Below, one piece after another: positions 41,450 to 60,009 of a stretch of 60,133 nucleotides of DNA. How positions within the stretch are numbered: the stretch's first letter is position 1; each line of letters opens with the position of its first letter. The stretch comes from a virus. Its lineage: Duplodnaviria > Caudoviricetes. A model generated the notes under the pieces. That model saw only the letters and a list, made by a program, of their open reading frames with translations. It did not search any database and had not been told where the DNA came from. Position numbers and translations under genes: made by a program. The stretch spans positions 1 to 60,133 of the IMG/VR virus record IMGVR_UViG_3300042453_003688, one strand, 5' to 3'.

Positions 41450-41530
41450 TAATTCTCTGCCTCCTTCCAGACCCAGTCTACGAATATAAGTTTAGTGTCA
41501 CACTTCTTACAATAAGATACTCTCATACCT

Positions 41531-41558
41531 GTATCGGCAGGTTTATGATAATCTTTAG
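41531..41558 (-). promoter_or_regulatory. sigma28/FliA-type promoter
   Basis: CTAAAG-N14-GCCGATAC; lies inside a small Cys-containing ORF. Confidence 0.55.
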
Positions 41559-41618
41559 GACATTTTGAAGAGGAGTAATAAGGCCAGCTCCAGGCTCCAT
41601 CATGCTCATCTTCTGTCA

Positions 41619-41921
41619 TTATTTTCTCTTCTCCACTTTCTTCAGTTGGCTTATTGCCTTTTGTATCTCGCCCCTCTTGGCGGGGGGAAGGTCAGCCGCT
41701 TCGCTTTCCAACTTGGCAATCTCTTTGTGTTCCTGGAATCCCTTACGCTTGGTGCCGTCGATATAGCTGGCACGGGTGAAGTTGGGAGCACTGAGGGTCT
41801 TACTCATAGGGCCGCCGCAGTCAGGACAGCCCCAGGTTCCGCCCTGCTCATCCCTGTCTATCAGGATGTCAGTAACCAGGTCACACTCTTCACAACGTAT
41901 ATCGATGGTTATCCAGCCCAC
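41619..41921 (-). CDS. FmdB-family zinc-ribbon protein
   Basis: CEEC...CPDCGG.M.K.LSAP. Confidence 0.75.
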   Translation of the reverse strand: MGWITIDIRCEECDLVTDILIDRDEQGGTWGCPDCGGPMSKTLSAPNFTRASYIDGTKRKGFQEHKEIAKLESEAADLPPAKRGEIQKAISQLKKVEKRK

Positions 41922-41970
41922 TGCATGCCCTCCACCATCCCGCTATCGCGGCTCGTTATCCATCCCACTG

Positions 41971-42135
41971 CTACTTCTTACCCTCCTCTTTTCCACAGGG
42001 CTTCCTACATCCGTGGCAACCGCGGCACTTGTGTACTACCGGGTCTTCTCTATAGGCCATAAATACGCAGGCAATAATAAGCAGGCAGAGCCATACCAGT
42101 CCAGTGATGTGAGGGTCTACAGTTATGAAGCCCAT
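41971..42135 (-). CDS. Small Cys-rich membrane protein (54 aa, not in ORF track)
   Basis: MGFITVDPHITGLVWLCLLIIACVFMAYREDPVVHKCRGCHGCRKPCGKEEGKK. Confidence 0.55.
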   Translation of the reverse strand: MGFITVDPHITGLVWLCLLIIACVFMAYREDPVVHKCRGCHGCRKPCGKEEGKK

Positions 42136-42140
42136 TGCTA

Positions 42141-42395
42141 CTATTCCTTTACGCTACCTAACTTATAGGCTTTTATTGTCTTAAGTTCTGTCCAGCCGTC
42201 ACTCCGTAGTACCTTGTTAAAATACCCGGCCTTGCCTCGGAATAGCATATCTTCATAGGCAGATTCTAAATCCCAGCCCAGGCAGTACTTGTCATTTGAC
42301 ATCGTGCCATCGGTGTACTCTATGAATACTTGATACCTGTCACAATTTTTAACGGGAAAGAAATCTGACAATTTTTTGGTGATATAGTTACCCAT
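42141..42395 (-). CDS. Hypothetical protein
   Basis: 84 aa, RBS GGAGGAG. Confidence 0.6.
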   Translation of the reverse strand: MGNYITKKLSDFFPVKNCDRYQVFIEYTDGTMSNDKYCLGWDLESAYEDMLFRGKAGYFNKVLRSDGWTELKTIKAYKLGSVKE

Positions 42396-42397
42396 CG

Positions 42398-42868
42398 CTA
42401 CTCCTCCACCTCGAAAATGTATTGCTTATATAGGTCTTTCAGTGCCTCACGGGGGACTCGATATCCTCCAGTTATCCATCCCCGATTCTTAATAGAGTGC
42501 ATGTACATGTCTTTAGTAATACTATCGAGACGCTTAATGAGTGCTGGGAGGTCAGTGAATTCGAAGTAGGTATTGTGTCGGACAAACATATAGCAGAATA
42601 TCTCAACCCCTTTGCCGTGGGATTGCCAGATACTGCCGGGCTTTTTATTAGTGATGTCACTCCACCGTTCAATAAAGAAGTTGGGAGTCTTCTCCATATT
42701 GTAGGTGTCAGTCTTTAGTTCCAGAAGGGCTCCGGTACTAACGACCTGGAAGTCTGCCGCGTGCTTGGGATATACAACGATAGGCTGGTGATAATACTCC
42801 AGAAAGAGTTCCTCCCCACGACTGCCTACCTCTATCTGTTCTTTGAAATCCCAAGTCTTGTTGCTCAT
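42398..42868 (-). CDS. PD-(D/E)XK-type nuclease-like protein
   Basis: G..GE...ADF...ELKTD...NFFIE pattern. Confidence 0.65.
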   Translation of the reverse strand: MSNKTWDFKEQIEVGSRGEELFLEYYHQPIVVYPKHAADFQVVSTGALLELKTDTYNMEKTPNFFIERWSDITNKKPGSIWQSHGKGVEIFCYMFVRHNTYFEFTDLPALIKRLDSITKDMYMHSIKNRGWITGGYRVPREALKDLYKQYIFEVEE

Positions 42869-42869
42869 G

Positions 42870-43177
42870 ATACCCCTTGCTTGGTGAATACTGGCGAATG
42901 TGCTTCATTGGCTACCGGGTTCGATTGCTCTACCCGCTGGTCGAAGACCGCCACTGCTTACCTCCTGCCTACTCGGAGACCAGTTATTGTGGGAACAGGG
43001 CCGGTCGCTACTCCGGCCACAGGCCGATACATGACGGATTGCACTGAGTTCACTCCCGAAGGAATCGGCTACGTCTAGCCCGCCGCCTATATAACTGCGT
43101 GTCTCCTGTTGTGTTGCTAGCCAATTACGGTGGATGCTATGCACCCTCACACAACTGCTTCCCACGCCGCCTGTTCC
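42870..43177 (-). ncRNA. Structured ncRNA with tRNA-like core
   Basis: GGAACAGG/CCTGTTCC closing stem stacked on a GCCGG/CCGGC T-like arm; GCGTG/CACGC D-like stem; UUCG hairpins; starts right after a sigma28-type promoter. Confidence 0.7.
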
Positions 43178-43185
43178 TTTCTGTC

Positions 43186-43213
43186 TTATCGGAATACTTC
43201 TCAGAAACTTGAG
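43186..43213 (-). promoter_or_regulatory. sigma28/FliA-type promoter for the ncRNA
   Basis: CTCAAG-N14-TCCGATAA, intergenic. Confidence 0.8.
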
Positions 43214-43215
43214 TG

Positions 43216-43416
43216 CTAGTAGAGCTGTTTGACACAGCAGGCCCCGTTACCGGCTATCCAGTAGTACCAGTATCCGGGACCTATATTTCTTCGTGCAACT
43301 TCTTGTTCATTATAGCAGAAGATAACTTCAGTAGATTCCAGCAAACAGAATACAACCATCGGTTGGAAGTCGTTGGCATCTAATCTCATGAGAACACCAG
43401 ACTTTCTTTCCACCAC
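43216..43416 (-). CDS. Hypothetical protein
   Basis: Small ORF coupled to helicase end; start uncertain. Confidence 0.45.
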   Translation of the reverse strand: MVERKSGVLMRLDANDFQPMVVFCLLESTEVIFCYNEQEVARRNIGPGYWYYWIAGNGACCVKQLY

Positions 43417-44840
43417 TGCGGAAAGAGGTGAGAGTGGTCCCGGTAGAGTCTGTGTTCAAATGTACTGTCAATAATGTAAGTGATACCCCAGTCGTCCGCT
43501 GCTCGGACTACCCTGCCGCTAGCCTGGAGAATTGACTTGGCTGTCTCCCATGCGTACCACTCAGGGTCACTGTCAGCCAGATACCTGACTGCAGGTTCAG
43601 CGAGGGAGGGATAGGGCACCTTGGTAATCACCTGCCAGCGGGCTGCATCGTAGGGGAGGTCAATCCCTTCGTACATACCGCTCGCCACAAGGACAGCACC
43701 TGTACTAGCAGGCTCATCCTTAAACGTCGTATAAACTTCCCGCGCATTCTCCCGTGTATGCCAGCGCAGCCTGGGCTCATTAGCTAAGAGAGGCCTGAGC
43801 ATAGAGGCAAGGGAGTAGGTAATATGAATGAGTCCCTTTTCCGGGTGGTCGCGCAACAAATTGCGCACGGCCTCAGCCAGAACAGGAAGATTAGTTTGCT
43901 GCTGTGCATAAGCCATACTACAAGTAGACAGTACAACGACTGGCCTTCTCTCAGCATCGACAGGAGAGGTAGCATTAACTGTGTACACCCTCTTCTTATC
44001 GAGACCCAGCTGCTCGACATCCTTCTGTCCAATGGTGGCTGACAGCAAAATTACCTTTCGTACCTTACTTCCCGGCCAAAAGAGTGGGGGCTGGTCCCTC
44101 ACATCGACAGGGGCCATCTTAATGCACTCCCTATCTTCTCCGTGATAGAGCTCACTACTTCGGGTAATCACGTACCGAGTCTTACCTGATTGCAATTCTT
44201 TGTGGAGAAGCTGGAGTTTCGGGTCCTCATCCAGATAGGGGTTAGCTTCCAGCCAGCGGAGAAGTGACCCGTAGTCCCTGACGTAACCCGGGAATCCGTA
44301 GTCGTGGTGCCAGAAAACTTTTGCTGCCCTGTCCTGCAGGACGCGAACTAGGTTGTGGGCTTCGTCAGCAATAAGGATATCCCGGTACAGCTTATGTGCC
44401 AGGTAGATGTGATTATTATAAATGCCATAAGGGACAGCATGAGACTGCCTGATACCCTTGACGTAGGGACAGTCGCTACAGTGTTTCTTCCTGCGGGCGT
44501 GCGTATCCTTGCAACTTATTCTGTGCTGGTCAGTCGAGAAATTACAGGTGTAGCTATCCTTCTTACTGAGAGAAGGCAGCTTGGGGAAGTCTGTCCTGTA
44601 CTGGTCAACTAGGACATTAGTAGGCGTGATGATAGAAGAGCCCAGCTTTCTCATGCTGCTGGCCCAGCGTGACAGGGTTACTGCCACCCTACTCTTGCCT
44701 GCCCCTACTGGGAGGTTGACGACGAATACGTCAGCCTTATCCCAATTCTCTTCAATCTGCTGCAGTGCCTGTATCTGAATAGCGCGGGGAACGCCTGGAA
44801 AGAAATCCAGCATCCCCGCCTTTTTGTTAATGCGTTCCAT
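43386..44840 (-). CDS. SF2 helicase, DinG/XPD-like
   Basis: LPVGAGKS, DEAH, LSAT, EGIDLP, KVPYP and QASGRVVR motifs; four Cys in the Fe-S region. Confidence 0.9.
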   Translation of the reverse strand: MERINKKAGMLDFFPGVPRAIQIQALQQIEENWDKADVFVVNLPVGAGKSRVAVTLSRWASSMRKLGSSIITPTNVLVDQYRTDFPKLPSLSKKDSYTCNFSTDQHRISCKDTHARRKKHCSDCPYVKGIRQSHAVPYGIYNNHIYLAHKLYRDILIADEAHNLVRVLQDRAAKVFWHHDYGFPGYVRDYGSLLRWLEANPYLDEDPKLQLLHKELQSGKTRYVITRSSELYHGEDRECIKMAPVDVRDQPPLFWPGSKVRKVILLSATIGQKDVEQLGLDKKRVYTVNATSPVDAERRPVVVLSTCSMAYAQQQTNLPVLAEAVRNLLRDHPEKGLIHITYSLASMLRPLLANEPRLRWHTRENAREVYTTFKDEPASTGAVLVASGMYEGIDLPYDAARWQVITKVPYPSLAEPAVRYLADSDPEWYAWETAKSILQASGRVVRAADDWGITYIIDSTFEHRLYRDHSHLFPQWWKESLVFS

Positions 44841-44865
44841 CCATCCGCCCCCCGGCTGTGTTCTA

Positions 44866-45327
44866 CTACCACTCCAACGATATACCTACAGCCACTTCTT
44901 TTCTGTCAACATCTACAATGACGTCCGCCCAGGCCGGGCTGTCCCAGAGTCTCTTGCCGACCGCGACAACAGGGTGGCCTTTGAGTTCTTTCTTCCACTC
45001 TGGTCTGACGGCAACCGTTGTTCTGAACTGGCGCGGCCTTTCTTTCGGCGTGACCGTGACCTTGCTGCTTTCTTTCTTGTCGCTGACTTTGGTGGTGTCT
45101 GTAACTGTTTTGATTGTTCTACTTCCATCGGGCTTGATGACTTCAGTGGTGGTTGTAGTCGATTTCTCAACCTCGTTATTCGCAGAGATAGAGCTACTAG
45201 TACTATCGCCGCCCGGCTTACTGCCCTGTCTAATGCCGACAATATAACCAATAACAAGTGCTGCACAAATAACTCCTATATATTTAATAATGTTACTAAT
45301 CATATTTATTTGCTCCTGTCTTTCCAA
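44866..45327 (-). CDS. Membrane-anchored protein with C-terminal beta-strands
   Basis: N-terminal TM, Thr/Lys-rich linker, ends VAVGISLEW. Confidence 0.7.
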   Translation of the reverse strand: MERQEQINMISNIIKYIGVICAALVIGYIVGIRQGSKPGGDSTSSSISANNEVEKSTTTTTEVIKPDGSRTIKTVTDTTKVSDKKESSKVTVTPKERPRQFRTTVAVRPEWKKELKGHPVVAVGKRLWDSPAWADVIVDVDRKEVAVGISLEW

Positions 45328-45680
45328 TCAGTAAACTCTTGCTTACCCATGCCGTCCGCTGCACCGCAGATAGCCCTATAAGTATAGTCAGCTACCTTGG
45401 CGAACACCTTAAGGCAGGGGCTGACCGGGAACAACTGGGCGCAGCGAGGAACTGCAAGCTGGTAGTTAGCTTCGTCTATCCTGTCGTAGGGCAGACCCAG
45501 GCGGGTTGTCTTAGGGCAGGGGGCAGGTTGTGGCCTCTGTGGAACAGGCTCACACACTGGTGGGTAGACTGCCGGATATATTTTACCGGGGTCGCAAGGC
45601 TGCATCTTCTCTTCTACACTCTTGCACTGAGCAAAACCGAGAGCTATAAGAAGGGCCAGTCCTGCAAGTCGTATGTTCAT
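45306..45680 (-). CDS. Putative lipoprotein, Cys/Pro-rich
   Basis: Signal peptide ending FAQC. Confidence 0.6.
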   Translation of the reverse strand: MNIRLAGLALLIALGFAQCKSVEEKMQPCDPGKIYPAVYPPVCEPVPQRPQPAPCPKTTRLGLPYDRIDEANYQLAVPRCAQLFPVSPCLKVFAKVADYTYRAICGAADGMGKQEFTDWKDRSK

Positions 45681-46243
45681 GGAAGTATAACCTCGTCAGC
45701 AAGTCCTAGTTCAACCGTCTCTTCGGCGGTAAGAATGGTATCAAATTCAAGCATCTTATTCAGACGTCCTCTACTGAAGTCGGGGTGCTTCTCTCTGATT
45801 CTCTCTAGTAACTTGTCGGAACAAATCTTATCTTCTTTAGCATTATATTTTGCCCAGCGTTTAACAATACTTGCATGGTCATCATAGGACTCACTGCCCA
45901 CGTGTACCATAAGGCGGGAGGTAGGAGCCATTCTCCGAGTGTCAGCAGCCTGCAATATAATTGAGGCCATGCTGCAAGCCTCTCCGTAGACATCAATTGT
46001 AATGTGAGCTGACTGCCTGCGTATCATGTCCATGATAGCTAGGCCCTGGTTAACATCCCCGCCCTCGCTATTAAGGATGATGGTGATGGGGTCAGAGTTC
46101 AAGTTACCGAGTATATGCAAGCCCTTGATGATGTCCTCAGCGGAGTCCTGGGTTATCTCTCCAATCAGGGACAGAGTTCTACTAGGTACATGAATACCCT
46201 TTTCATAGAAGGTTAGAATGGTTTCCGTGTCATTCTTTCTCAT
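45677..46243 (-). CDS. ClpP-family protease subunit
   Basis: NSEGG, ACSMAS (Ser), LMVH (His), FDTILTAEE (Asp), GLADEV. Confidence 0.88.
   Translation of the reverse strand: MRKNDTETILTFYEKGIHVPSRTLSLIGEITQDSAEDIIKGLHILGNLNSDPITIILNSEGGDVNQGLAIMDMIRRQSAHITIDVYGEACSMASIILQAADTRRMAPTSRLMVHVGSESYDDHASIVKRWAKYNAKEDKICSDKLLERIREKHPDFSRGRLNKMLEFDTILTAEETVELGLADEVILP
45813..45840 (-). promoter_or_regulatory. sigma28/FliA-type promoter, internal to the ClpP gene
   Basis: CTAAAG-N14-TCCGACAA. Confidence 0.5.
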
Positions 46244-46589
46244 CTACTTCCCCTTCAATAAATATTTCGAGACTCGCTGGTACTTCATATTCTACCCTGC
46301 CAGGCGGACATATTCCAAGCTGTATATTCATCATCGCCTGCTTTCTTTGCCAGCGTCCCCTACTTCTTTTCTTGACCAGCGCTTCCCAGCGGCAAGCCTG
46401 GCTGCGCGTCGAAAATCCCTTAAGGTAACATAAGAGTTTCCACCTACCTGCCGACCTCCGCGTCGCCCTCGCGCCGCCAGATATTTCGCCATTATGCTGC
46501 CGTAGCCTACGAGTAACACAAGTAGTACTGCCAACATAAGTCCGTTGTCCATCGAAAATAAGGTAGACATACCAGTCACTCTTCTTCAT
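46230..46589 (-). CDS. GIY-YIG nuclease, SLX1-like
   Basis: YVYL...TYVGST...RRLRQHNGEISGGA..T...W...GF.....A..WE. Confidence 0.88.
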   Translation of the reverse strand: MKKSDWYVYLIFDGQRTYVGSTTCVTRRLRQHNGEISGGARATRRSAGRWKLLCYLKGFSTRSQACRWEALVKKRSRGRWQRKQAMMNIQLGICPPGRVEYEVPASLEIFIEGEVDEKE

Positions 46590-46773
46590 CTCCCGACTCC
46601 TCTAGAATCAGGGAGTGAAGCTGAACGATAGCCTCATGCAAATCTGCCGGTAGGAGACCCCACACAGTACGGCCTTCAGAGCTGACGAACACTTCTATCC
46701 CGGCAGGTTCTCCGTCTTGCATGTCAAGCCGTTCCAACATGTATTCCACTGTCTCACGTATTAGAGGATTCAC
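46576..46773 (-). CDS. Hypothetical protein
   Basis: 65 aa acidic ORF overlapping neighbours. Confidence 0.5.
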   Translation of the reverse strand: MNPLIRETVEYMLERLDMQDGEPAGIEVFVSSEGRTVWGLLPADLHEAIVQLHSLILEESGDEEE

Positions 46774-47284
46774 GCATCACCTTCTCTGGTAGTAGGGGTA
46801 GGGGCTTCTCTGATAGCCGACATGCAGTGAGTATGGCAGTATACCCCAGCATGATAGCGTCCTTCTCATCAGTCTTCTGATAATCTTTTGGAACATGCTT
46901 ATGCCAGGTGATAGGCGGCACCTCTACCAGTGGCCTATCAATGCTACCGATGATAGCACCGATTGCCCTCTGCAAAGAAACGATACTCTTACTGAAGCCG
47001 CTACCTTTCATGAAGGGCGGAATGAATTCCACAACTAGTATGTCCGGGGTAGGAAACTCTTCGCGGAGTGTCTGACTAATGAGATAGAGTTTTCGATTGA
47101 ATTCCCTATCACGGGCTACTTCAATGAAACCGCTGTCAATGAGTACACCTTCCTGGAAGACCGCGTAGCCTGGCATACTATTACGGCTGCCGGAGGACGG
47201 GTCGATAGCCAGCACATTACCACCCAGTATTTGAGGGATGACTTTGGATACCTGCTTCTCCAGGTTGGTCATAGGCTTAGTCAT
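46754..47284 (-). CDS. RuvC-like Holliday junction resolvase
   Basis: VLAIDP...GYAV, LVVE, V.P.TW.K, DE.DAI; likely ATG 47284. Confidence 0.78.
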   Translation of the reverse strand: MTKPMTNLEKQVSKVIPQILGGNVLAIDPSSGSRNSMPGYAVFQEGVLIDSGFIEVARDREFNRKLYLISQTLREEFPTPDILVVEFIPPFMKGSGFSKSIVSLQRAIGAIIGSIDRPLVEVPPITWHKHVPKDYQKTDEKDAIMLGYTAILTACRLSEKPLPLLPEKVMRESSNT

Positions 47285-47462
47285 TATCCCACTCACTTTC
47301 TTCATAGTCTCTAAGCAGACGCATGAGGAGACCGGAGATAGCGCCAGCCAGAAAGCCAGCAAAGAGGCCCTCTACCCACGTCATCCTATCCGACATCGAG
47401 AGGAGCATTAGGAATACACCACCAATAATTATCCACGCAATAAGCCTGACTAGTATTACCAC
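47277..47462 (-). CDS. Two-TM small membrane protein
   Basis: Two hydrophobic helices. Confidence 0.55.
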   Translation of the reverse strand: MVILVRLIAWIIIGGVFLMLLSMSDRMTWVEGLFAGFLAGAISGLLMRLLRDYEESEWDND

Positions 47463-47782
47463 TTGATTTGAAACTCCTCGTCATATTTGCCTTCGAATAG
47501 TGCAGCCATCTCGTCCTTTATAACCTTGATAACCCTGCGGTGTCGGGGAATCTTCTTGCTAACTACGTACTCCAAGGCTAACTCTTCTACGATTCTTTCC
47601 CAAAGAAACTGACGCACTGCCTCATCTAGAAAGTGTAGCCTATTCTCCATGGCTAAATCATTAACAAGGTCACTGTTACCTACGATGTGCTTAGCGGTGA
47701 ATAGGGCAACTAGCGTGTGCTTACTATTCTTCCTTTGGTTTGATTTCATATTCCGCCTCATCGGTAGAAATGTCTCGGTCAA
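47456..47782 (-). CDS. Hypothetical protein
   Basis: ORF in operon; start uncertain. Confidence 0.55.
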   Translation of the reverse strand: MTETFLPMRRNMKSNQRKNSKHTLVALFTAKHIVGNSDLVNDLAMENRLHFLDEAVRQFLWERIVEELALEYVVSKKIPRHRRVIKVIKDEMAALFEGKYDEEFQIKW

Positions 47783-47937
47783 TAATCAACATCAAGTTCA
47801 AGATGCTGTCCGATTCCGCTACTACTATGCCATTTCTCAAAAGTTGATACAGCTTCATATGCAATGTTCCCGACGATAAATCCCATGAAATAACCAAAAC
47901 CAAAAGCAGCAGTTACCGCTATAATACTACGTACCAT
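47779..47937 (-). CDS. Small membrane protein
   Basis: Likely ATG 47937; one TM. Confidence 0.45.
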   Translation of the reverse strand: MVRSIIAVTAAFGFGYFMGFIVGNIAYEAVSTFEKWHSSSGIGQHLELDVDY

Positions 47938-48286
47938 TTTGCCTCTGCCCCTTATAGTACTGGATGTTTTCCGGCATGAAGGAACTGGCAGTACAGTCAT
48001 CGAAGTACCACGTTGGCTTGGCCATGCAGGCCCACACCAGGTCAGATAGACCCAGTGCCTCTACCACATTGCGAGACCACTCACTGCCCCCGGCTGACCA
48101 TACAATAACAGTATGTCCGCGGGCAGCGAAGTCCCTGATAGCCTCTACGTGCTTCTCTTCAACTATCCAAGCTCTGTCATTAATAAGGGCAATTGGTCCT
48201 TCCGCCTGCGGGTACTCCGCCTGCGAATAGACCAACGTATTATCGACATCGAAATATACTGTCGGACCGGGGGGTGTAGTAAACAT
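47927..48286 (-). CDS. HAD-superfamily phosphatase-like protein
   Basis: FDVDNTL, VWSAGG, KP.WYFDD. Confidence 0.82.
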   Translation of the reverse strand: MFTTPPGPTVYFDVDNTLVYSQAEYPQAEGPIALINDRAWIVEEKHVEAIRDFAARGHTVIVWSAGGSEWSRNVVEALGLSDLVWACMAKPTWYFDDCTASSFMPENIQYYKGQRQNGT

Positions 48287-48302
48287 AATACCTCCTACTC
48301 CC

Positions 48303-48330
48303 TTATCGGAAGAAAGCGGAGGTACTTGAG
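48303..48330 (-). promoter_or_regulatory. sigma28/FliA-type promoter
   Basis: CTCAAG-N14-TCCGATAA, intergenic, upstream of RBS AGGAGG. Confidence 0.8.
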
Positions 48331-48338
48331 GGGAAATA

Positions 48339-48617
48339 TTACTGGGAGATTATAAGTGCGGAGGAACTGTCTGGGAATGCAACTTCCCGCCAACTTATGA
48401 GAAGAGAGTCCGTTCCCTTTTCATTAATAAGTTTGTAGCCAAGCAGCTTCATGGCCTCTACATTCTCGGGGAACATGTAGCCGTGGAAGATAAACTGCAA
48501 GTGGCCTTCGGACGCACGCTTCTGTATGTGAGAAAGTATCTCGGAGTACTGCGTTGCAATCTTTTCAGCGTGCTTAGTTAGTGCCAACTTCTTTGCTTCT
48601 TCTGCTCTCACTTCCAC
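48339..48617 (-). CDS. Hypothetical protein
   Basis: A.EA...I..RA..G...LGYK...ISW pattern common in phages. Confidence 0.6.
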   Translation of the reverse strand: MEVRAEEAKKLALTKHAEKIATQYSEILSHIQKRASEGHLQFIFHGYMFPENVEAMKLLGYKLINEKGTDSLLISWREVAFPDSSSALIISQ

Positions 48618-50845: not shown

Positions 50846-50998
50846 GGACGCGAGCCCCTTGAGTTGGATGGAATGTAAGAGGAGTCGATGCCTTCCTTGG
50901 CGTCAACCCTTCGTACTGACCCAGCCGTTCCATCTCCGAGAAGTAGGAACCATAACCGCCATACTGATAGTTATTTTTAGCTGGGCTTGACATGCGAA

Positions 50999-51253: not shown

Positions 51254-51319
51254 GAGATTCGCCTCCTGCCCATGTAGGGCTATGTTTGTCTGTCAGTAGA
51301 CACCATGCCTCCTGACAAA

Positions 51320-52701: not shown

Positions 52702-52707
52702 ACTATT

Positions 52708-52920
52708 TTACTCCGCAAAAAAATTGGTAGGAGAAACCCACTCTAATGCCTCGGACGGAAAGAGCTCTATGTTCTTAGAGCCCTCGTAGTAGCCAACGTA
52801 TGCCAGTGGGTCAGGGCTGGGCCCCAGTATTGTCGCTACCCTGCGACTGTTCGACCAGTGTACTGCCCGAAATGCCCGATGATTCGCTTCCCGATAGAGC
52901 TGCACCAGTGTCTTCTTCAC
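52708..52920 (-). CDS. Hypothetical protein
   Basis: 70 aa ORF. Confidence 0.45.
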   Translation of the reverse strand: MKKTLVQLYREANHRAFRAVHWSNSRRVATILGPSPDPLAYVGYYEGSKNIELFPSEALEWVSPTNFFAE

Positions 52921-53098
52921 GTGCGTGTTCTTCCTTCATCTGAGCAATCAGTTTATTACGAATATCCATGGCCTCTTTAAGAAGTCCTATCTTGGCCAGA
53001 CGCTTAACGTCTACCTGCATTACACTTGCTGCGGCCTGAACCGCTAGCATCTCCGTGCCCGAAAGACGTACTACAATCCTTGCTCTTCCTTTGCTCAT
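52811..53098 (-). CDS. Possible ribbon-helix-helix protein
   Basis: RIVVRLS..E...V.AAA pattern. Confidence 0.5.
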   Translation of the reverse strand: MSKGRARIVVRLSGTEMLAVQAAASVMQVDVKRLAKIGLLKEAMDIRNKLIAQMKEEHAREEDTGAALSGSESSGISGSTLVEQSQGSDNTGAQP

Positions 53099-53817
53099 TG
53101 CTTAGTACTCCTGCTTTGAAGAAATACACTAATGGAAGCCTCATCACTACCGTCACTATTCAACCCACCGAAGAGGGCCTTGTCAGTCTTGATGTCAGAT
53201 ACAATGGTAATCCAATTACGTTGAGGAATCTGTTTAACCAGACGGGTAGCAGTCCAAAGAGTTTCATTCTTGTAGTGATATGAGAACCATTCTTTGTGCT
53301 TTGCGGAAGCAATACCCATACTAAGTTCCAGCCGGTCACACATCTCGAAGTTGATAGCCTCAAGTTCTTCCGCCATGTAACGTGCATCCTCAGCCTTGAG
53401 CGTAGCAAACATCAGCATAGCGCGAGCCGGGTGGAATAGAAGCAGGGAATTAGACAGGGCATAGCGTTCACTGCACTCCGACAGAATAATAAAGGCCATA
53501 CTTGCAGCCAAATTTGTGACGGCACAACGTACCGTAACGCCGCGGGCCTTAGCTATGTGAAGGGCCTCGACTAACTGGAGACCTGCAGGAACACTGCCTC
53601 CTGGACTGTTAATAATAATATTAATTGGCTCTGAAGACGCTGCGGAAAGCCTCTCTATGTTGGATGCAACAGACAGAATAGAACCGCCAACCTCTCCACT
53701 TATGCGGACAGTACGGGAGCCCGTCATGTCGATAGTCGGACCGGCGAACGCTGGGAAGAGACTAATGATACACGTTAAACTGAAGGCAGCGATTGTTTTC
53801 ATTAAAAAGTTTCTCAT
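53095..53817 (-). CDS. ClpP-like protease with N-terminal signal peptide
   Basis: Signal peptide ending AFA; INSPGGSV, AASMA (Ser), LLFHP (His). Confidence 0.8.
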   Translation of the reverse strand: MRNFLMKTIAAFSLTCIISLFPAFAGPTIDMTGSRTVRISGEVGGSILSVASNIERLSAASSEPINIIINSPGGSVPAGLQLVEALHIAKARGVTVRCAVTNLAASMAFIILSECSERYALSNSLLLFHPARAMLMFATLKAEDARYMAEELEAINFEMCDRLELSMGIASAKHKEWFSYHYKNETLWTATRLVKQIPQRNWITIVSDIKTDKALFGGLNSDGSDEASISVFLQSRSTKQ

Positions 53818-53819
53818 TA

Positions 53820-53969
53820 TTAGACTAACCTAAGGTGATTGGGTTTTTGTTTCTTCGTGCGCTTGTTGTTTCCTGGAATACTATTGCCGCCAGTCAGCGT
53901 GGCTACTACCTTTCGGTTGTTCTCCTCCCGTATTTTTTGTGAGTTATTTTTCTGTTGTTGATAGTTCAT
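53820..53969 (-). CDS. Small basic protein (MNYQQQK...HLRLV)
   Basis: RBS GGAGGAG and promoter directly upstream; could instead be the 3' part of ORF 53820-54218. Confidence 0.5.
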   Translation of the reverse strand: MNYQQQKNNSQKIREENNRKVVATLTGGNSIPGNNKRTKKQKPNHLRLV

Positions 53970-53994
53970 TGTCTTCTCCTCCCCATTAGTACTA

Positions 53995-54022
53995 TTATCG
54001 GAATCTTTTCTGGAATCTTTAG
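53995..54022 (-). promoter_or_regulatory. sigma28/FliA-type promoter
   Basis: CTAAAG-N14-TCCGATAA. Confidence 0.72.
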
Positions 54023-54221
54023 TAAGAATTTGTGGGTCCAACTGGCAAGCTGCAACCCACTTATCTACTGCCAGCTTCAGGGCCTCGGGACCGTCAGTCA
54101 TACCTCTACAAATAGGACAACTGCCGGATGGATTGGGATTCCTAACAGACTCCCAGTGCACAGGCATGCCACTAGTTACCAAGGTGAGGGCAACCTTATG
54201 TGTGACACAAAAGGACATTTG

Positions 54222-54656
54222 TTAGTCCCCAATACGGCGCTTGAGCTGGTAACCACGTGCCTTACTAGTATCACTTATAGTACTAATAAGCTGCTTGTCT
54301 GCCTCGTCTGCACCCTTGCACAGTTCCTCAGCCATCTTCTGCAGAGCTGCTTCCATCTTGAGGGCATGCCGCCAGAAGTCAATGGATGCAGCTTCGACAT
54401 CCGGCGCATTCTTCAGGTACTTGGAAACACGGGCAAGCATGTCGTTCAGGTCCAGAGTGTCGCAGCCGTGGGTGCCGATGATACGCTCGACCACGCTATC
54501 GAATTGCCCTTCCACTGCGGCATAACTGTCAGCCGCATGCCCATGGTCAGCAAAGAAAGACGGACCCTTCAGATGGTGGTGAACATGGTGGTAGTAGAGT
54601 TGCATGCTACGCAGGTAGGTAGCCAGCACTGTCATGTCGTTAGCGGATGTTGCCAT
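54222..54656 (-). CDS. Dps/ferritin-like protein
   Basis: H..H...KGPSFF.DH......Y.......D...ER, the Dps ferroxidase-type pattern. Confidence 0.75.
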   Translation of the reverse strand: MATSANDMTVLATYLRSMQLYYHHVHHHLKGPSFFADHGHAADSYAAVEGQFDSVVERIIGTHGCDTLDLNDMLARVSKYLKNAPDVEAASIDFWRHALKMEAALQKMAEELCKGADEADKQLISTISDTSKARGYQLKRRIGD

Positions 54657-54658
54657 TG

Positions 54659-54934
54659 CTATTCTTGCTCCTCGTCATTTTGTTTAAAAAAAATAATATC
54701 CAGATAATTCTCATACATATTGAGTAGCTCTATATCATCCAGCCTTTCTAGCTCAGTGTAGAGCTTGTCCCACACCAGGTTAAGGTGGTCGTCAGTCACT
54801 GCGTCACCGTAATCCTTCGGGCAGAGGGCAACTATCTCTGCATCTGTCATCTCATCTAGCCTGAAGTTAGCCATGGCTACCATCATAGTATGGAAGTCGC
54901 CTGTAAGATTACGCCCCAGTATCTTGTCAGTCAT
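54659..54934 (-). CDS. Acidic hypothetical protein
   Basis: 91 aa, RBS GGAGG. Confidence 0.6.
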   Translation of the reverse strand: MTDKILGRNLTGDFHTMMVAMANFRLDEMTDAEIVALCPKDYGDAVTDDHLNLVWDKLYTELERLDDIELLNMYENYLDIIFFKQNDEEQE

Positions 54935-54942
54935 TGTTATTA

Positions 54943-55137
54943 TTACCTCCCCCTATCTTGCTTATCGGTAATTATACCAGAAACTTGAGTAGGCTTTCTG
55001 GTCCAGAAATTTACTTGGACTTCTTGACCGGGCGGATAACCCTGATTGATTGTTCTGTCGTAGTCCCTGAGCCGGGGCAATAGAATAATAATACCCAGTA
55101 CAGCGTAGGATATAAGCAGGATGCCAGCGAAACTCAC
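54943..55137 (-). CDS. Small membrane protein
   Basis: N-terminal TM. Confidence 0.45.
   Translation of the reverse strand: MSFAGILLISYAVLGIIILLPRLRDYDRTINQGYPPGQEVQVNFWTRKPTQVSGIITDKQDRGR
54962..54989 (-). promoter_or_regulatory. sigma28/FliA-type promoter
   Basis: CTCAAG-N14-ACCGATAA upstream of the 54934 gene and Dps. Confidence 0.75.
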
Positions 55138-55385
55138 GGCAACACCTCCCCTGTTTCAATGTCGTAGCGAAGACTGTCGTTGGCCACTACTTCCTCACCT
55201 GTCCACGGGTCAGGCGTTGTGAAACTGTACAGAATAATACCAACATTGAATTTCTTGCTGCAAATATTGTAGTATTCCACGTTGTTACCCCGAAGGTAGG
55301 TGAGTACCTCTGACACGTGCTTACAACTAGCGAACATAGCTTGACGGCCTCCGTTAAGAATGAGTATAATCCAAAGTACACACAC
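55134..55385 (-). CDS. Hypothetical protein
   Basis: 83 aa; start uncertain. Confidence 0.45.
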   Translation of the reverse strand: MCVLWIILILNGGRQAMFASCKHVSEVLTYLRGNNVEYYNICSKKFNVGIILYSFTTPDPWTGEEVVANDSLRYDIETGEVLP

Positions 55386-55432
55386 ACAACAGGGTCTGCA
55401 CTGCTAGCCACACACTAGCAGTCAGGCCCCCC

Positions 55433-55741
55433 CTATCCTATAGTGCCCGCTGCTTTGAAGATGGTGCCCCTAGCCCTTAGCCCAACACTTCCCCTCTCCC
55501 GGTCCTCCAGCTGCAGTACATCGACTGCACTCAGAAGGTCAGCCATATTACAGTAGTCCAATACAATACGGTTATCGCCTATCCACACGACGTAGCCATT
55601 GCCGGTGCAGGTCAGTTCAACACTGCCGCTAGCTACTGTCTTTCTGTCATTCTTGCGGTCGGTTACGGTCACCCTGCCGTCTACCTCACCGTCGCTGTCA
55701 CAAATTATTATATAGTTTCGTGACGCCTTACCCATTCCCAT
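55433..55741 (-). CDS. Hypothetical protein
   Basis: 102 aa ORF in operon. Confidence 0.55.
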   Translation of the reverse strand: MGMGKASRNYIIICDSDGEVDGRVTVTDRKNDRKTVASGSVELTCTGNGYVVWIGDNRIVLDYCNMADLLSAVDVLQLEDRERGSVGLRARGTIFKAAGTIG

Positions 55742-56504
55742 TATTAAGTACCTTTCTTTGAAGTAATTCTGCAGTTCCTAGTAATGCAAGGTAGAGTTCG
55801 TATTGGTCGGTAGAGTAATTATGCCTATCTGCTATTTCTTTAGCCCTTTTCACCCATTCAGCGATTGTATGGGACTCACAACCGATATTAACTCTATCGT
55901 GCAGCACTGTAATAGTATGCATAGATAGTCCAGACATTACTGGCACCCTATATTGAACAGCAGCATTGCCATACACCTGAGCATAACCGTACACCCTAGC
56001 ATTACCGTACGCCTGAGAATTGCCGTACACTTCAGCATTGCCGAACACCTTAGCATTGCCAAACACCCAAGCATTGCCGAACACCTTAGCACTGCCAAAC
56101 ACCTGAGCACTGCCGTACACTTCAGCATTGCCGAACACCTTAGCATTGCCAAACACCCAAGCATTGCCGAACACCTTAGCATTGCCAAACACCCAAGCAT
56201 TGCCGAACACCTTAGCACTGCCAAACACCTGAGCATTGCCAAACACCTCGGAATTGCCGGACACCCTAGCATCGCCGGACACCTGAGCGTTACCAAACAC
56301 CCTAGCATTGACAAACACCTTAGCATTGCCGGATATCCAGCAATCACCATCGTGGGATAGATTGTATTCCGATTCTATATACCCACCTACTTCCCCTTCT
56401 TTAATAGTGGAGAAATTTCTAAGGGCAACAATCCTTCTAAGATTGAGATTGTTTGGATGCCTTTCACCTGTAAGTTTATATTTTGTATTCTCACTCATCG
56501 CCAT
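55728..56504 (-). CDS. Hexapeptide-repeat (left-handed beta-helix-like) protein
   Basis: L.RI.ALR.F...G..GG.IE.E.NLS..G.CW followed by about 20 V(F/Y)G(N/S)A-x repeats. Confidence 0.85.
   Translation of the reverse strand: MAMSENTKYKLTGERHPNNLNLRRIVALRNFSTIKEGEVGGYIESEYNLSHDGDCWISGNAKVFVNARVFGNAQVSGDARVSGNSEVFGNAQVFGSAKVFGNAWVFGNAKVFGNAWVFGNAKVFGNAEVYGSAQVFGSAKVFGNAWVFGNAKVFGNAEVYGNSQAYGNARVYGYAQVYGNAAVQYRVPVMSGLSMHTITVLHDRVNIGCESHTIAEWVKRAKEIADRHNYSTDQYELYLALLGTAELLQRKVLNNGNG
55966..56335. repeat. Tandem 18-bp coding repeat array
   Basis: Units such as cttagcattgccgaacac / ccaagcattgccaaacac. Confidence 0.9.
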
Positions 56505-56904
56505 TCACCTCATGCTCTAGTGCAAGATAGACGCCATTGTCGATTGCCGTATAGCCACTTACCTTCTCTGGATTAATACTGTTTACGCGCACCATCTTTC
56601 CCATGTACTCCTCGGTTCCCTTCATGACAAAGAGAAGCCAGGAATGTCCCTCTCTATTAATCTCCAGCACACTCTCCTGTTCAAAGTTCTGAGCGGCCAC
56701 AGTGACTAGTCTGCGTATCACCTCAGCAGAATGGGGTCCAGGCATTACCATGAGACTGCGTTCCATCTCCCCCTTGTACATACCTAGGACTCCGTGGACC
56801 TCTACTCCTGCCGACTCCAGCATGTTTCGCATCTGGTGAGTTCGCGCCAGATTGTTGGCTGCGCCTGGTTTCTCTGCACTTATAATGAATACGGTACTAG
56901 ACAT
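56491..56904 (-). CDS. SAM lyase (T3 SAMase-like), paralogue 2
   Basis: IISA...N..R...G.Y.G..E.S...A..F.QESVL. Confidence 0.7.
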   Translation of the reverse strand: MSSTVFIISAEKPGAANNLARTHQMRNMLESAGVEVHGVLGMYKGEMERSLMVMPGPHSAEVIRRLVTVAAQNFEQESVLEINREGHSWLLFVMKGTEEYMGKMVRVNSINPEKVSGYTAIDNGVYLALEHEVNGDE

Positions 56905-56939
56905 TTGTATGGTTCCTCCCAGTAGTTACCAGTCCTGCG

Positions 56940-57185
56940 TTAATAATCGTTACCATTGCTACCTCCTCCTTCCATTCCAATCTCAAGAAGGGCACCGACC
57001 CCTTCCCACCTTTGTTTCCTGTCTCGCTCAGCCCTTCCCAGTGCGACTGCTACACGTACGGCCTCTTCTCCCGTGCCCATGAACATGACCATGCCGGCAC
57101 CCATCCTGTCCATCGCATCCCCAAGAGAGCCCGTACTAGTCAGCCCTGTACCATCTTTTCGCATGGTGTGGAATTGTCTACTCAT
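56940..57185 (-). CDS. Hypothetical protein
   Basis: Likely ATG 57185 within ORF 56940-57350. Confidence 0.45.
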   Translation of the reverse strand: MSRQFHTMRKDGTGLTSTGSLGDAMDRMGAGMVMFMGTGEEAVRVAVALGRAERDRKQRWEGVGALLEIGMEGGGSNGNDY

Positions 57186-57405
57186 CATTGCCCCCCTCCC
57201 CCTCTTCGCCGTCAATAAGTTGCTGCAAGAACTGTTCCGCGTCCAGACTATCTTCGAAAGTGTCCACTGTGTACCACTTACCTGCGTCCTTCTCCTGCAC
57301 CGCCCAGAAGTCCGGGATGTCGTCCGGCAATGCCTTCCTCTGACGTGCACTGCCCTGATTGTCCACTTCCTCGGTTGTGACTACTGCTATCAGTCGGTAT
57401 CTCAC
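57178..57405 (-). CDS. Hypothetical protein
   Basis: 75 aa acidic ORF. Confidence 0.5.
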   Translation of the reverse strand: MRYRLIAVVTTEEVDNQGSARQRKALPDDIPDFWAVQEKDAGKWYTVDTFEDSLDAEQFLQQLIDGEEGEGGNDE

Positions 57406-57425
57406 TGTAGTGCCCCCCTGTACTA

Positions 57426-57677
57426 TTAGAATGCTGCCGTCAGTCTACCGTCGTGGGATAGGTAGATGACGCTGTTAATCTTAAAGGAACGGTAACCGCC
57501 CTTCCTAACGTCGAACACGGTAACGATATCCTTGTCCAGCCTATCCAGTGCCCGGCTGTCCACCTTGCAGACTAGCGTTCGCAACTCTCCATTCATCTTC
57601 ACGAAGTCAACACTGATGAACCTGCCGCTGACTGCCGCCTCGCCCAGGACTCGGATGATTGCCTTCTCGCTACTCAT
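57426..57677 (-). CDS. WYL_2/SH3-like fold protein
   Basis: V.F.K.NGE.R.L.C...VFDV.K.GYRSF. Confidence 0.7.
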   Translation of the reverse strand: MSSEKAIIRVLGEAAVSGRFISVDFVKMNGELRTLVCKVDSRALDRLDKDIVTVFDVRKGGYRSFKINSVIYLSHDGRLTAAF

Positions 57678-57847
57678 AATCTTTTCTCCCCTTCTTGTAT
57701 GTTAATTTCTTTCAGCTCAGCAATCAGTTGGTTGACTCTCTTGATACTCTCGACCAGTCTCTCCCGCTGGTCCCCTACTGTTGCATCGTTGCCCCACTTC
57801 TCACGCAGCCACTCATGTACATAGATAACCACTCGGTCCTGTTGCAT
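57674..57847 (-). CDS. Small hypothetical protein (57 aa, not in ORF track)
   Basis: MQQDRVVIYVHEWLREKWG...; RBS GGAGG; ATGA overlap with next gene. Confidence 0.5.
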   Translation of the reverse strand: MQQDRVVIYVHEWLREKWGNDATVGDQRERLVESIKRVNQLIAELKEINIQEGEKRL

Positions 57848-57880
57848 GGATGAAACTACCTCCTGCCAATGCCGGTTAGT

Positions 57881-58147
57881 TCAGCTATTACGATTACTGC
57901 GACGATGATACACGTAATGATTCCAAGGGTTGCTGTTATGAGTACTACACTCGGGACAACTTGCTCTAATACTAGGCCAATCACATGCTTGTCCATCTTC
58001 TCCTGCCTCCTCTGTTAGTACACGTTCGACTACTTGTTGGAATTCCAGGAACTTCTTCTCTTCGGGTGAGCAGCCCGGCCTGGAAGCCGGGTCTGCCAGT
58101 GTGTCATCCAGAGACCACTCTTTCTTATTCTCACGCCACCTTTGCAT
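57881..58147 (-). CDS. Hypothetical protein with Cys/His cluster
   Basis: CPEC...HYVYH; start uncertain. Confidence 0.45.
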   Translation of the reverse strand: MQRWRENKKEWSLDDTLADPASRPGCSPEEKKFLEFQQVVERVLTEEAGEDGQACDWPSIRASCPECSTHNSNPWNHYVYHRRSNRNS

Positions 58148-58913
58148 CGATTGCGGCCTCCTCGATTGTTGAGAGTAGGTTGACATTGCGCATTTCATTG
58201 CCGAACACTGAGCGACTGCTGCGACGGAGTGCCTCATTTATTGCATTATACAGTGCCCAAAGATTCGGTTCATTGTCGCGTCCCAAGCTACCACTGCGGA
58301 TGTGTTCCAGTTGACTGAGTTGTGCCTTACCAAGTCCCAGCTGCGCAACAATGCTGGTTTCCTGTTCCTGAGTGATTGTACGGCTAGCCATTGCAGAGAA
58401 CTTGCTTTGTATCGTAAGGAGTCCGTCGAACACGGCACAAATGCGCTCATCAAGGTTTTTTGTGAAACTGTCCATTGATGGGCCTTTCAGGTGCCTACGT
58501 TTAGCAGAGGTAACAACGTCCTCATAACCGGGTACAGGCATTGTAAGGCCATTGCTGCACACCAGTCGAAAGAAACCCATATAGAAGCGCAAACTGGACT
58601 CGCCATTATAACTGTTGACAATGACCATTTCCGGATGTCCCTCGTTAGGACTGCCGCCACCGGACAGTGCAGCAAAGCGTATGCGGACACTATGCAGTGT
58701 GCCACTCCTACGGGTGCTGACAGTGGTGCGGTCGATGTGGAATCCCTTCTCGACACCGATACGCAGAACTCGCTGCAGTACGTCAGCAGTGTCCACGTGA
58801 GCGTACCTTTCTGTGGTCTGCTTCTTACTTGCGGCATTTGCCATCAGGCGGGTGTTAACCTCAGCGAACGACTCGACAAATTGACGGTTGCGGATACTGG
58901 TTACTACTTGCAT
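58131..58913 (-). CDS. DUF932-family protein
   Basis: NSYNG.SS..F..G.FRLVCSNGL...RH...LW.LYNA.NE. Confidence 0.85.
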   Translation of the reverse strand: MQVVTSIRNRQFVESFAEVNTRLMANAASKKQTTERYAHVDTADVLQRVLRIGVEKGFHIDRTTVSTRRSGTLHSVRIRFAALSGGGSPNEGHPEMVIVNSYNGESSLRFYMGFFRLVCSNGLTMPVPGYEDVVTSAKRRHLKGPSMDSFTKNLDERICAVFDGLLTIQSKFSAMASRTITQEQETSIVAQLGLGKAQLSQLEHIRSGSLGRDNEPNLWALYNAINEALRRSSRSVFGNEMRNVNLLSTIEEAAIDAKVA

Positions 58914-58949
58914 ATTTTTCTCTCCCCTTGTTATTTGTTACTAACTACC

Positions 58950-58978
58950 TTGTCGGCATTCTGCCAGAAAAACTTGAG
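58950..58978 (-). promoter_or_regulatory. sigma28/FliA-type promoter
   Basis: CTCAAG-N15-GCCGACAA, intergenic. Confidence 0.7.
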
Positions 58979-58986
58979 CCCTATTT

Positions 58987-59208
58987 TTATTTTTCAATGC
59001 TTACAATCGGTTGCGTTGCTGGCATGGTTTCACTTGCAAGGACATCCCGCAGTTGAATGAACGGATAGATATCGTCCGTTACCTTCCGCATACGGGCAAG
59101 GTCCCTTCGGTCCCGCAGTACCGCAGCTGCATGCAGTACCATAACTGCTGTCCAGAATCCCGCCACCGTGCCGAGTAGCATTGCCATAACTGTCACGCCG
59201 GTTTCCAT
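58987..59208 (-). CDS. Small membrane protein
   Basis: N-terminal TM. Confidence 0.5.
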   Translation of the reverse strand: METGVTVMAMLLGTVAGFWTAVMVLHAAAVLRDRRDLARMRKVTDDIYPFIQLRDVLASETMPATQPIVSIEK

Positions 59209-59210
59209 AA

Positions 59211-59393
59211 CTATCTACTTTCTACGTGGTGTACGATGCTGTCCACGTCATCGAACGGGACCCGCAGACCGCTATCGTATCCCGATTCCCCGAAGTACAG
59301 CTCGCAGTATGCCTTCTCGGTGCGGACGTTATACCAGATACTCGTAATGCGTACGCTCTCACCTCTGAAATTGCCCGTTGCTATCGTCTTCAT
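59211..59393 (-). CDS. Hypothetical protein
   Basis: 60 aa, RBS AAGGAG. Confidence 0.6.
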   Translation of the reverse strand: MKTIATGNFRGESVRITSIWYNVRTEKAYCELYFGESGYDSGLRVPFDDVDSIVHHVESR

Positions 59394-59460
59394 ACTGTTT
59401 CTCCTTGGTTATACCGGTGACGTCACATCACGCCACCGGCGATTAGTACTTACCGCTTAC

Positions 59461-59835
59461 TTATTCGGCGATATAGAAACGACCCTCGACTATAGTGTAA
59501 GCATCCTTGCCTTCCACGTCCGATTCTGAAACCTGTCTAAACTTACCTAGTTCATAAGTACTTCCGTCATCAAACAGTAGGCTTGCATCACTGTTTGCGC
59601 CTACAACCAGTATGGACTCCTGATTATATTTGCGCGCAACTACTTGCAGGGATTCGGGACCTAACCCCGTGACCACTAGGGACCCTTCCTGGATTCCCTT
59701 GTAGTAGCCGGTAGCGTCAACCATCTCGCCACCAATTGAGCGGATGTCCACGCGCAACCTTGTATGCCTTGCCTCATTTTGTTTGGTGGTTAGTTCAGCG
59801 CGGTATGCGGACATTATAATCATTGGACCTTGCAT
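59461..59835 (-). CDS. SAM lyase (T3 SAMase-like), paralogue 1; first gene of the early arm
   Basis: IMSAYR...N..RH...TGYY.G..E.S...ARKYNQESIL...LGKFRQV...YT, matching T3 gp0.3 motif spacing. Confidence 0.78.
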   Translation of the reverse strand: MQGPMIIMSAYRAELTTKQNEARHTRLRVDIRSIGGEMVDATGYYKGIQEGSLVVTGLGPESLQVVARKYNQESILVVGANSDASLLFDDGSTYELGKFRQVSESDVEGKDAYTIVEGRFYIAE

Positions 59836-59886
59836 AACTTGTATCCCCCGTTAGTAAGCAGCGCGACCATCGCGCCGATGTCATAC

Positions 59887-59915
59887 TTAACGGCGAAAGC
59901 AACCAGAAACTTGAG
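59887..59915 (-). promoter_or_regulatory. sigma28/FliA-type promoter
   Basis: CTCAAG-N15-GCCGTTAA upstream of the first early gene. Confidence 0.65.
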
Positions 59916-60009
59916 CACTATTTTTATAACCCAACGCTGTCGCGGACTTGCAGCAAAGGGCCCCATTGGCGGGTACGCGGAGAAACAATGCCAGCCCAGG
60001 AGACTGAAG

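Follow-up and report, generated by a model that had tools for sequence, protein, structure and literature searches.

Sigma28-type promoter motifs on the replication arm of an uncultured phage family and their exchange with sigma70-type promoters

Phages use the sigma70 of the host, bring a sigma factor or RNA polymerase of their own or, in a few cases, follow host regulators such as CtrA. Phage-encoded sigma cascades are known from T4 (gp55/gp33) and SPO1 (gp28 and gp33/34). Here we describe a genome of Caudoviricetes (Duplodnaviria), IMG/VR record IMGVR_UViG_3300042453_003688, in which nine motifs of the flagellar sigma28 (FliA) promoter type line the minus-strand replication arm and sigma70-type sites are found on the virion arm. 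The window, that is, the whole stretch analysed, is the complete record of 60,133 bp. As in T4 and SPO1, blocks of genes would be read through different promoter classes by the host core polymerase, but those phages bring their own sigma, and none is detectable here or in five complete relatives. Given the resemblance of the motifs to a known promoter class, host RNA polymerase with a FliA-family sigma factor probably transcribes the replication arm.

Clusters of CtrA-binding sites are the closest published concept found. They occur in pili- and flagellotropic phages of Alphaproteobacteria, are discussed as a means of 'lytic deferment' and originated independently in several lineages (PMC9437464). 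The likeness lies in promoters wired to a host regulator which reports an appendage-tied cell state, and the repeated origins have a counterpart in the at least two to three changes of promoter class on the polymerase tree described below. However, CtrA is a transcription factor with few sites in one region, whereas here an alternative sigma would replace sigma70 over a 20-kb arm. The CtrA phages are pili- or flagellotropic; for the present phage, adsorption to the flagellum is hypothetical. In sequence, the motifs resemble the FliA class-3 flagellar promoters of Proteobacteria, for which the published Escherichia coli consensus is TAAAGTTT-n11-GCCGATAA (PMC2859248): both octamers are present at a spacing of 11-12 nucleotides (nt), and many sites have an A-rich upstream stretch. 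Unlike class-3 promoters, the phage sites belong to a lytic-type phage and precede replication, anti-restriction and lysis genes, not flagellar or chemotaxis genes; they carry an extra conserved C before TAAAG and G after GCCGATAA, and their dependence on FliA is putative. The FliA regulon of Bdellovibrio (PMC3627812) is similar in that a sigma28-type motif governs a large non-flagellar gene set in one phase of the life cycle. Yet that regulon is cellular and its -35 box is TTAAG, whereas the phage sites read CTCAAG or CTAAAG, and no link to that host was found. Within the openly accessible full texts searched, no phage with a sigma28-type promoter set is reported.

Plus-strand genes fill 1-39 kb of the window (virion arm), and minus-strand genes fill 39.5-60 kb. 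A first-pass annotation, made from the letters of the sequence, had proposed nine co-oriented motifs on the minus arm. All nine lie at the positions it gave, and its own pattern has nine matches on the minus strand and none on the plus strand. The sites are listed below, with scores from a weight matrix built from related phages.

P1, 59887-59915, minus strand: CTCAAGTTT...GCCGTTAA, 15 nt between TCAAG and GCCGTTAA; the first sigma28-type promoter of the arm, with the S-adenosylmethionine (SAM) lyase gene 59461-59835 beginning 51 nt downstream; 24.7 bits.
P2, 58950-58978, minus strand: intergenic, ATG of the DUF932 gene 58131-58913 36 nt downstream; 31.1 bits.
P3, 54962-54989, minus strand: ATG at 54934 (gene 54659-54934) 27 nt downstream; 31.1 bits.
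P4, 53995-54022, minus strand: strong Shine-Dalgarno (SD) sequence and ATG at 53969 25 nt downstream; within the longest reading of the open reading frame (ORF) 53820-54218, after which comes the ClpP-like gene 53095-53817; 27.3 bits.
P5, 51324-51351, minus strand: overlaps the last codons of a gene for 324 amino acids (aa), 51320-52294, and lies upstream of 50999-51253 and DNA polymerase A (48617-50845); 27.8 bits.
P6, 48303-48330, minus strand: intergenic, ATG at 48286 (gene 47927-48286) 16 nt downstream; 22.8 bits.
P7, 45813-45840, minus strand: inside the ClpP-like gene 45677-46243, 132 nt upstream of 45306-45680; the weakest site, 20.1 bits.
P8, 43186-43213, minus strand: intergenic, GTG at 43165 (gene 42905-43165) 20 nt downstream, followed by the PD-(D/E)xK nuclease-fold gene 42398-42868; 29.0 bits.
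P9, 41531-41558, minus strand: ATG at 41449 81 nt downstream; heads the last unit of the arm, which runs towards the endolysin gene 40007-40645; 25.3 bits.

The -35 element reads CT[A/C]AAG in all nine sites, as CTCAAG in five and CTAAAG in four, and is followed by TTT in five of the nine. The -10 element is [G/T/A]CCG[A/T][T/C]A[A/C] throughout, with an exact CCGATAA in five sites. The distance from TAAAG to GCCGATAA is 14 nt in seven sites and 15 nt in two, corresponding to n11 and n12 between the octamers. The sites thus match both octamers and the spacing of the published sigma28 consensus. Three of them (45813, 51324 and 53995) overlap coding sequence, and eight are followed by an SD-like sequence and a start codon 16-81 nt downstream.

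Since the first-pass pattern had been fitted to the sites, two independent descriptions of the motif were tested. The outside consensus, TAAAG-N14/15-GCCGATAA, agrees with the published one (PMC2859248). With up to two mismatches it has 12 matches on the two strands together, whereas 200 dinucleotide shuffles have 2.38 +/- 1.64 (largest, 9), and with up to one mismatch three matches, against 0.125. Counts at two mismatches thus include chance matches, of which about 2.4 are expected per 60 kb with both strands counted. P1-P9 make up nine of the 12, and the remaining three are located at 1416 (plus), 17029 (minus) and 4705 (minus). The second description, a weight matrix for which 41 sites of related phages were the sole training set, applied with a cut-off of >=14 bits, gives 20.1-31.1 bits for the nine sites and no match on the plus strand; 20 random first-order Markov sequences yield 0-2 matches each (14 in total). 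The excess over shuffled controls is strong and strand-specific, and the motif is not equally frequent on the plus strand or in the structural arm, where the matrix adds one weak site (17002-17029, minus strand, 16.9 bits), antisense to the virion genes and inside gene 16996-18927.

Sigma70-type promoters and the leader of the minus arm are as follows.

673-701, minus strand: TTGACA-17-TATAAT, a perfect sigma70-type promoter (12/12) at the head of the minus arm.
724-753, plus strand: TTGACA-18-TACTAT (10/12), at the head of the virion arm.
1577-1605, plus strand: TAGACA-17-TAAGAT with an upstream TG (9/12), intergenic between 1070-1576 and 1632-2216.
28973-29001, plus strand: TTGACA-17-TATCAT (11/12), intergenic between 23557-28944 and 29028-31646.
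1-672 and on across the terminal repeat to 59916, minus strand: ORF-poor leader of about 770 nt, from promoter 701-673 to P1.
60010-60133: 124-bp repeat of 1-124.

The terminal repeat indicates a circular or terminally redundant assembly with a genome unit of 60,009 bp, and by its classification the record has direct terminal repeats and is 100% complete. The three plus-strand promoters had been proposed before and are all present. The perfect minus-strand promoter had been missed; it diverges back to back from the plus-strand promoter at 724. The minus arm carries the nine sigma28-type sites, but the perfect promoter at 701-673, together with the leader, means that the arm is not fed by sigma28-type promoters alone. 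Elsewhere on the minus arm (40134-60133) sigma70-like sites are not in excess (22 versus 20.9 +/- 4.9 expected). The window by itself is weak evidence for sigma70 promoters on the virion arm, because the sites scoring >=10/12 in 1-40000 are split between the plus (six) and minus (five) strands.

No ORF with a convincing SD sequence was found in the leader. Folding of the leader RNA is nothing unusual (z = -0.54), Rfam has no matching family, and comparison with the leaders of relatives gave no similarity except for one 39-nt match (E 0.006). The corresponding position in the relative G001 is occupied by about 1 kb that is poor in ORFs and dissimilar in sequence, and the divergent sigma70 pair recurs in G001 (32932 minus, 32966 plus) and in contig G009c (54586 minus, 54644 plus). 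The leader may serve as an origin or a packaging site, or yield a decoy transcript. A 27-nt repeat, CTTGGCTCCCTGTTTAGCTACGTCAAG, on the minus strand, occurs once in the leader (around 329-355) and once inside gene 31627-32367 (31984-32010).

The DNA polymerase of the window has 220 homologues at E<=1e-10, many of them on contigs of 56-62 kb. An alignment of 19 polymerase homologues recovered 21 related viral loci (372,842 bases, polymerase oriented plus), with polymerase identities of 22-69%; a locus search with a single protein as query had found nothing. Across these loci, the consensus with up to two mismatches has 64 matches on the polymerase strand and 10 on the opposite one, and the motif is thus conserved in related phages. 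The matches are concentrated in 10 loci (same/opposite strand: L001 6/0, L002 10/2, L003 5/2, L005 9/2, L007 4/1, L010 3/0, L011 3/0, L013 6/1, L014 11/0, L016 6/0); in the remaining 11 the motif is absent or scarce. The 41 training sites have the -35 consensus CTAAAGTTTTT and the -10 consensus TGCCGATAAG and are split 20 to 21 between the 14- and 15-nt spacing classes. Conservation extends beyond the searched pattern, to a C before TAAAG, TTT after it and a G after GCCGATAA, and many sites have an A-rich stretch upstream of the -35 box. An SD sequence with a start codon lies within 150 nt of 36 of the 41 relatives' sites (<=1 mismatch), versus 450 of 820 random positions in the same loci. The P5 junction, between the 324-aa gene and the polymerase operon, retains a site with up to two mismatches in 8 of 10 motif-bearing loci, and P7 has a near-identical counterpart in L001.

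Where the motif is missing, sigma70-type promoters take its place. Strong sigma70-type sites (>=11/12) number 29 co-oriented with the polymerase and 2 opposite in the 12 loci then classed as motif-free, and 4 co-oriented and 7 opposite in the 11 motif-bearing stretches including the window; G009c was first classed as motif-free from the partial locus L022 and later found to be mixed. Its arm begins with two good sigma28-type sites, each with SD and ATG, and continues with sigma70-type sites. In the five complete motif-bearing relatives (G001-G005), sigma28-type sites (<=1 mismatch) cluster on the polymerase arm with three exceptions, at 42443 in G001 (antisense), 43245 in G003 and 17107 in G004. 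In a hand count from site lists, TTGACA-N16-18-TAnnnT occurs on their virion arms in 41 co-oriented and two antisense copies. The split between a sigma28-type replication arm and a sigma70-type virion arm, as claimed for the window, thus recurs in all five. By contrast, neither strand of the complete motif-free relatives G006-G008 contains a sigma28-type site at <=1 mismatch. No shared alternative motif of the motif-free relatives emerged from repeated k-mers, and Bacteroidota-type promoters (TTG-N17-21-TAnnTTTG) are not enriched in any locus.

The polymerase tree has 21 rows, L015 and L021 being left out for lack of a long ORF. The window falls into a motif-bearing group of five rows (support 82/98, below the star threshold of the tree), and a second motif-bearing clade of five rows has a support of 100/100; L010 adjoins the motif-free L020. 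On this tree the distribution of the motif requires three changes, at least two of which are forced by well-supported branches. We suggest tentatively, rating it somewhat below an even chance, that the arm of this family was rewired between sigma70 and sigma28 at least two or three times and that phages of the sigma28 lineages take over the cell and replicate only in motile cells with free FliA, past hook assembly. Motif-bearing relatives span 45-56% G+C, suggesting several hosts. Megablast of 40000-60133 against cultured phages gave no close relative, and for the polymerase, fibre-like protein, terminase and portal, identity to cultured phages over long matches does not exceed about 20-25%. 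The phage family is uncultured.

The genes of the minus arm, all on the minus strand, are listed in the order in which transcription of the arm would meet them.

59461-59835, minus strand: SAM lyase, first gene of the arm (Pfam S-AdoMet_lyase, E 1.5e-19).
58131-58913, minus strand: DUF932 protein.
56491-56904, minus strand: SAM lyase, second copy (Pfam, E 9.4e-18).
55728-56504, minus strand: YdcK-like solenoid.
54222-54656, minus strand: ferritin-like protein.
53095-53817, minus strand: first ClpP-like protein.
52276-52701, minus strand: dATP/dGTP-diphosphohydrolase N-terminal domain (E 1.6e-27).
51320-52294, minus strand: 324-aa gene, conserved and core to the family, no family match.
48617-50845, minus strand: DNA polymerase A.
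46754-47362, minus strand: RuvC-like nuclease.
45677-46243, minus strand: second ClpP-like protein.
43386-44840, minus strand: helicase.
42398-42868, minus strand: 156-aa gene, predicted PD-(D/E)xK nuclease fold.
40007-40645, minus strand: lysozyme-type endolysin, end of the arm.

In the explanation that we favour, the nine motifs would be promoters for host core RNA polymerase carrying a sigma28 (FliA/WhiG-family) factor. They would divide the 20-kb minus arm into about nine transcription units with the SAM lyases, the DUF932 protein, two ClpP-like proteins, the dNTP diphosphohydrolase, DNA polymerase A, the RuvC-like nuclease, the helicase, the PD-(D/E)xK nuclease and, terminally, the endolysin. 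The virion arm would be read from ordinary sigma70-type promoters, and the sigma70 promoter at 701-673 would also feed the head of the minus arm through the non-coding leader. The host sigma would be FliA specifically rather than another sigma28-family protein, and bulk expression of the replication arm would need a host with free sigma28, that is, in a flagellated, motile state. The wiring may be adaptive, for example if the phage meets only motile cells. The first-pass annotation called this arm early; replication genes are indeed present, but it is not exclusively early, since its last unit extends into the endolysin gene.

The anti-restriction function of SAM lyase is expressed first in phage T3. 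That a SAM lyase is also the first gene after P1 argues for a holoenzyme already present when the phage DNA enters. The main alternative is that a phage-made or virion-delivered factor, such as a divergent sigma, a sigma appropriator or a packaged RNA polymerase, reads the motif and that the likeness to sigma28 arose by descent or convergence. Many proteins of the arm are orphans, no family being found for 17 of the 20 small ORFs, and early plus-strand genes could be expressed beforehand from the sigma70 promoters at 724 and 1577. However, the very first unit of the arm already carries the motif, and both boxes and their spacing are identical to the canonical sigma28 consensus, although a private factor would be under no need to preserve it. 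Sigma domains (Sigma70_r2 and Sigma70_r4; PF04542, PF04545) gave no match at E<=10 in six-frame translations of the six genomes, the window and G001-G005, in searches with positive controls. T7-type RNA polymerase (PF00940) gave no match either, in a weak search whose control was positive in no genome. The earlier statement that no phage sigma factor or RNA polymerase is visible is thus borne out for sigma domains and, for the polymerase, answered by a blank search without a working control. The bipartite motif is itself unlike the promoters of single-subunit RNA polymerases. Pfam and PHROGs scans of 55 of the 85 called ORFs revealed no sigma or transcription factor.

Several genes were considered as the factor that reads the motif. 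In a whole-genome presence table, no ORF of the window is present in all five complete motif-bearing relatives and in none of the four others. The 156-aa gene 42398-42868 comes close, as detailed below, and was rejected: its model (predicted local distance difference test, pLDDT, 90.9) has fold matches that are all weak (none at E<=0.001) and mostly PD-(D/E)xK nucleases (RecU/PrfA, DpnI, Hjc), a fold that its conserved D...ELK motif fits, and the gene comes late in the arm, preceded by its own sigma28-type promoter. Genes 1070-1576 and 1632-2216 stand behind sigma70 promoters and are of sigma-like size, without a match in the Protein Data Bank (PDB) or Pfam, but they are also found in motif-free relatives. 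The 324-aa gene, a core gene of the family, gave no match. Among the large virion-arm proteins, the sole D.D.D match to a polymerase site, in the 872-aa protein, reads DADGDGKMD and looks like a calcium-binding loop rather than a polymerase site. Thus, we favour the host sigma28 holoenzyme, which we regard as probable, over an undetected phage factor, which we regard as unlikely.

Some findings weigh against the host holoenzyme. A very divergent sigma-like protein of the phage or a polymerase packaged in the virion can escape sequence profiles, and no family was matched by three large virion-arm proteins (1795, 872 and 1196 aa). The 156-aa gene co-occurs with the motif, being present in five of five complete motif-bearing relatives and the mixed G009c and in none of three motif-free ones. 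Some sigma70-driven read-through into the minus arm is possible, because a perfect sigma70 promoter heads it. A few sigma28-type sites lie in the virion arms of relatives (the G003 and G004 sites at 43245 and 17107). Finally, a contig of the family was binned in a metagenome-assembled genome (MAG) of a phylum without flagella. This 59.4-kb contig (G009 contig 138, L022), in a Saprospiraceae MAG, is the sole match in 185,579 species genomes; it is probably a phage contig caught up in the binning, and we do not count it as evidence of a host. Weak hints of a host come from the look-alike cluster of the endolysin, which is mostly from Pseudomonadota, and from strong SD use, and the YdcK-like protein matches phages of many hosts.

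The first-pass annotation suggested a Bdellovibrio-like predator as a plausible host, with sigma28-family promoters that would make the phage follow the switch between attack and growth phases, which we consider very improbable. The window has a G+C content of 46-54% (2-kb steps), close to that of Bdellovibrio bacteriovorus. FliA-type motifs precede 92 of 140 attack-phase promoters in that species, and the published attack-phase motif is TTAAG-N16-CCGATA (PMC3627812). However, T in the second position is found in none of the nine window sites, and TTAAG in 2 of the 63 relatives' sites listed. No search gave a protein, DNA or binning link to Bdellovibrionota, and the G+C range of the motif-bearing relatives also speaks for more than one host. 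Such a host is unsupported. It is equally improbable that the motif is no promoter but a repeated binding site of a phage protein (repressor/operator, replication or packaging) or a coding by-product: three of the nine sites overlap coding sequence and some relatives' sites fall on a conserved peptide, L-K...T-D-K, of the 156-aa gene, but the motif consists of two boxes at a fixed spacing, all in one orientation, usually stands 16-81 nt upstream of an SD sequence and start codon, is replaced by sigma70-type promoters in relatives and matches a known promoter class.

Three further genes mark the virion arm.

6596-8041, plus strand: terminase.
8475-10496, plus strand: P22-like portal.
14303-16993, plus strand: tail-repeat protein.

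Other observations concern the gene content of the window and its relatives. One arm holds two SAM-lyase genes (59461-59835 and 56491-56904, minus strand). Two ClpP-like proteins are encoded in the replication arm, away from the capsid genes, and the one at 53095-53817 is kept in all nine complete relatives examined. Enzymes of the dATP/dGTP diphosphohydrolase kind accompany modified-base pathways; the ORFs of the window that were scanned include no PurZ-like protein. At the end of the arm, a 73-aa ORF (40446-40667, minus strand), conserved in all five complete motif-bearing relatives, overlaps the N-terminal 80 codons of the longest endolysin reading. The lysozyme domain starts at residue 82, and the endolysin start codon probably lies later than in that reading; the small ORF might be genuine and encode, for instance, a holin. 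The 10-mers that recur in the window belong to the repetitive coding sequence of the YdcK-like gene, and no tRNA genes were found in the genome. Among the relatives, the DNA polymerases of L013 (5928-9137) and L014 (7478-10738) are about 1070-1087 aa long, which reflects a large insertion, and that of L007 (9003-12178) is split over three ORFs. L004 contains dense GGGACAGTGTGTGGG-like repeats, the component 10-mers of which occur 6 to 16 times, all on one strand.

If the favoured explanation is true, an arm with anti-restriction, replication and lysis genes has been handed to the flagellar sigma, a new way of tying infection to host physiology. If replication moreover proceeds only in motile cells, as tentatively suggested above, the wiring would be a sensor of host state that acts at the level of sigma and needs no phage regulator, of use to phages that attach by way of the flagellum or gain from planktonic, energised hosts. 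On the favoured explanation, cells that are non-motile, overexpress flgM or carry a fliA mutation would be poor hosts even when they adsorb the phage. The motif would also be a sequence-only marker for FliA-bearing hosts, by which motif-bearing and motif-free members of the family could be distinguished. The repeated exchange of sigma70 and sigma28 within one family is a natural experiment on the turnover of promoter classes.

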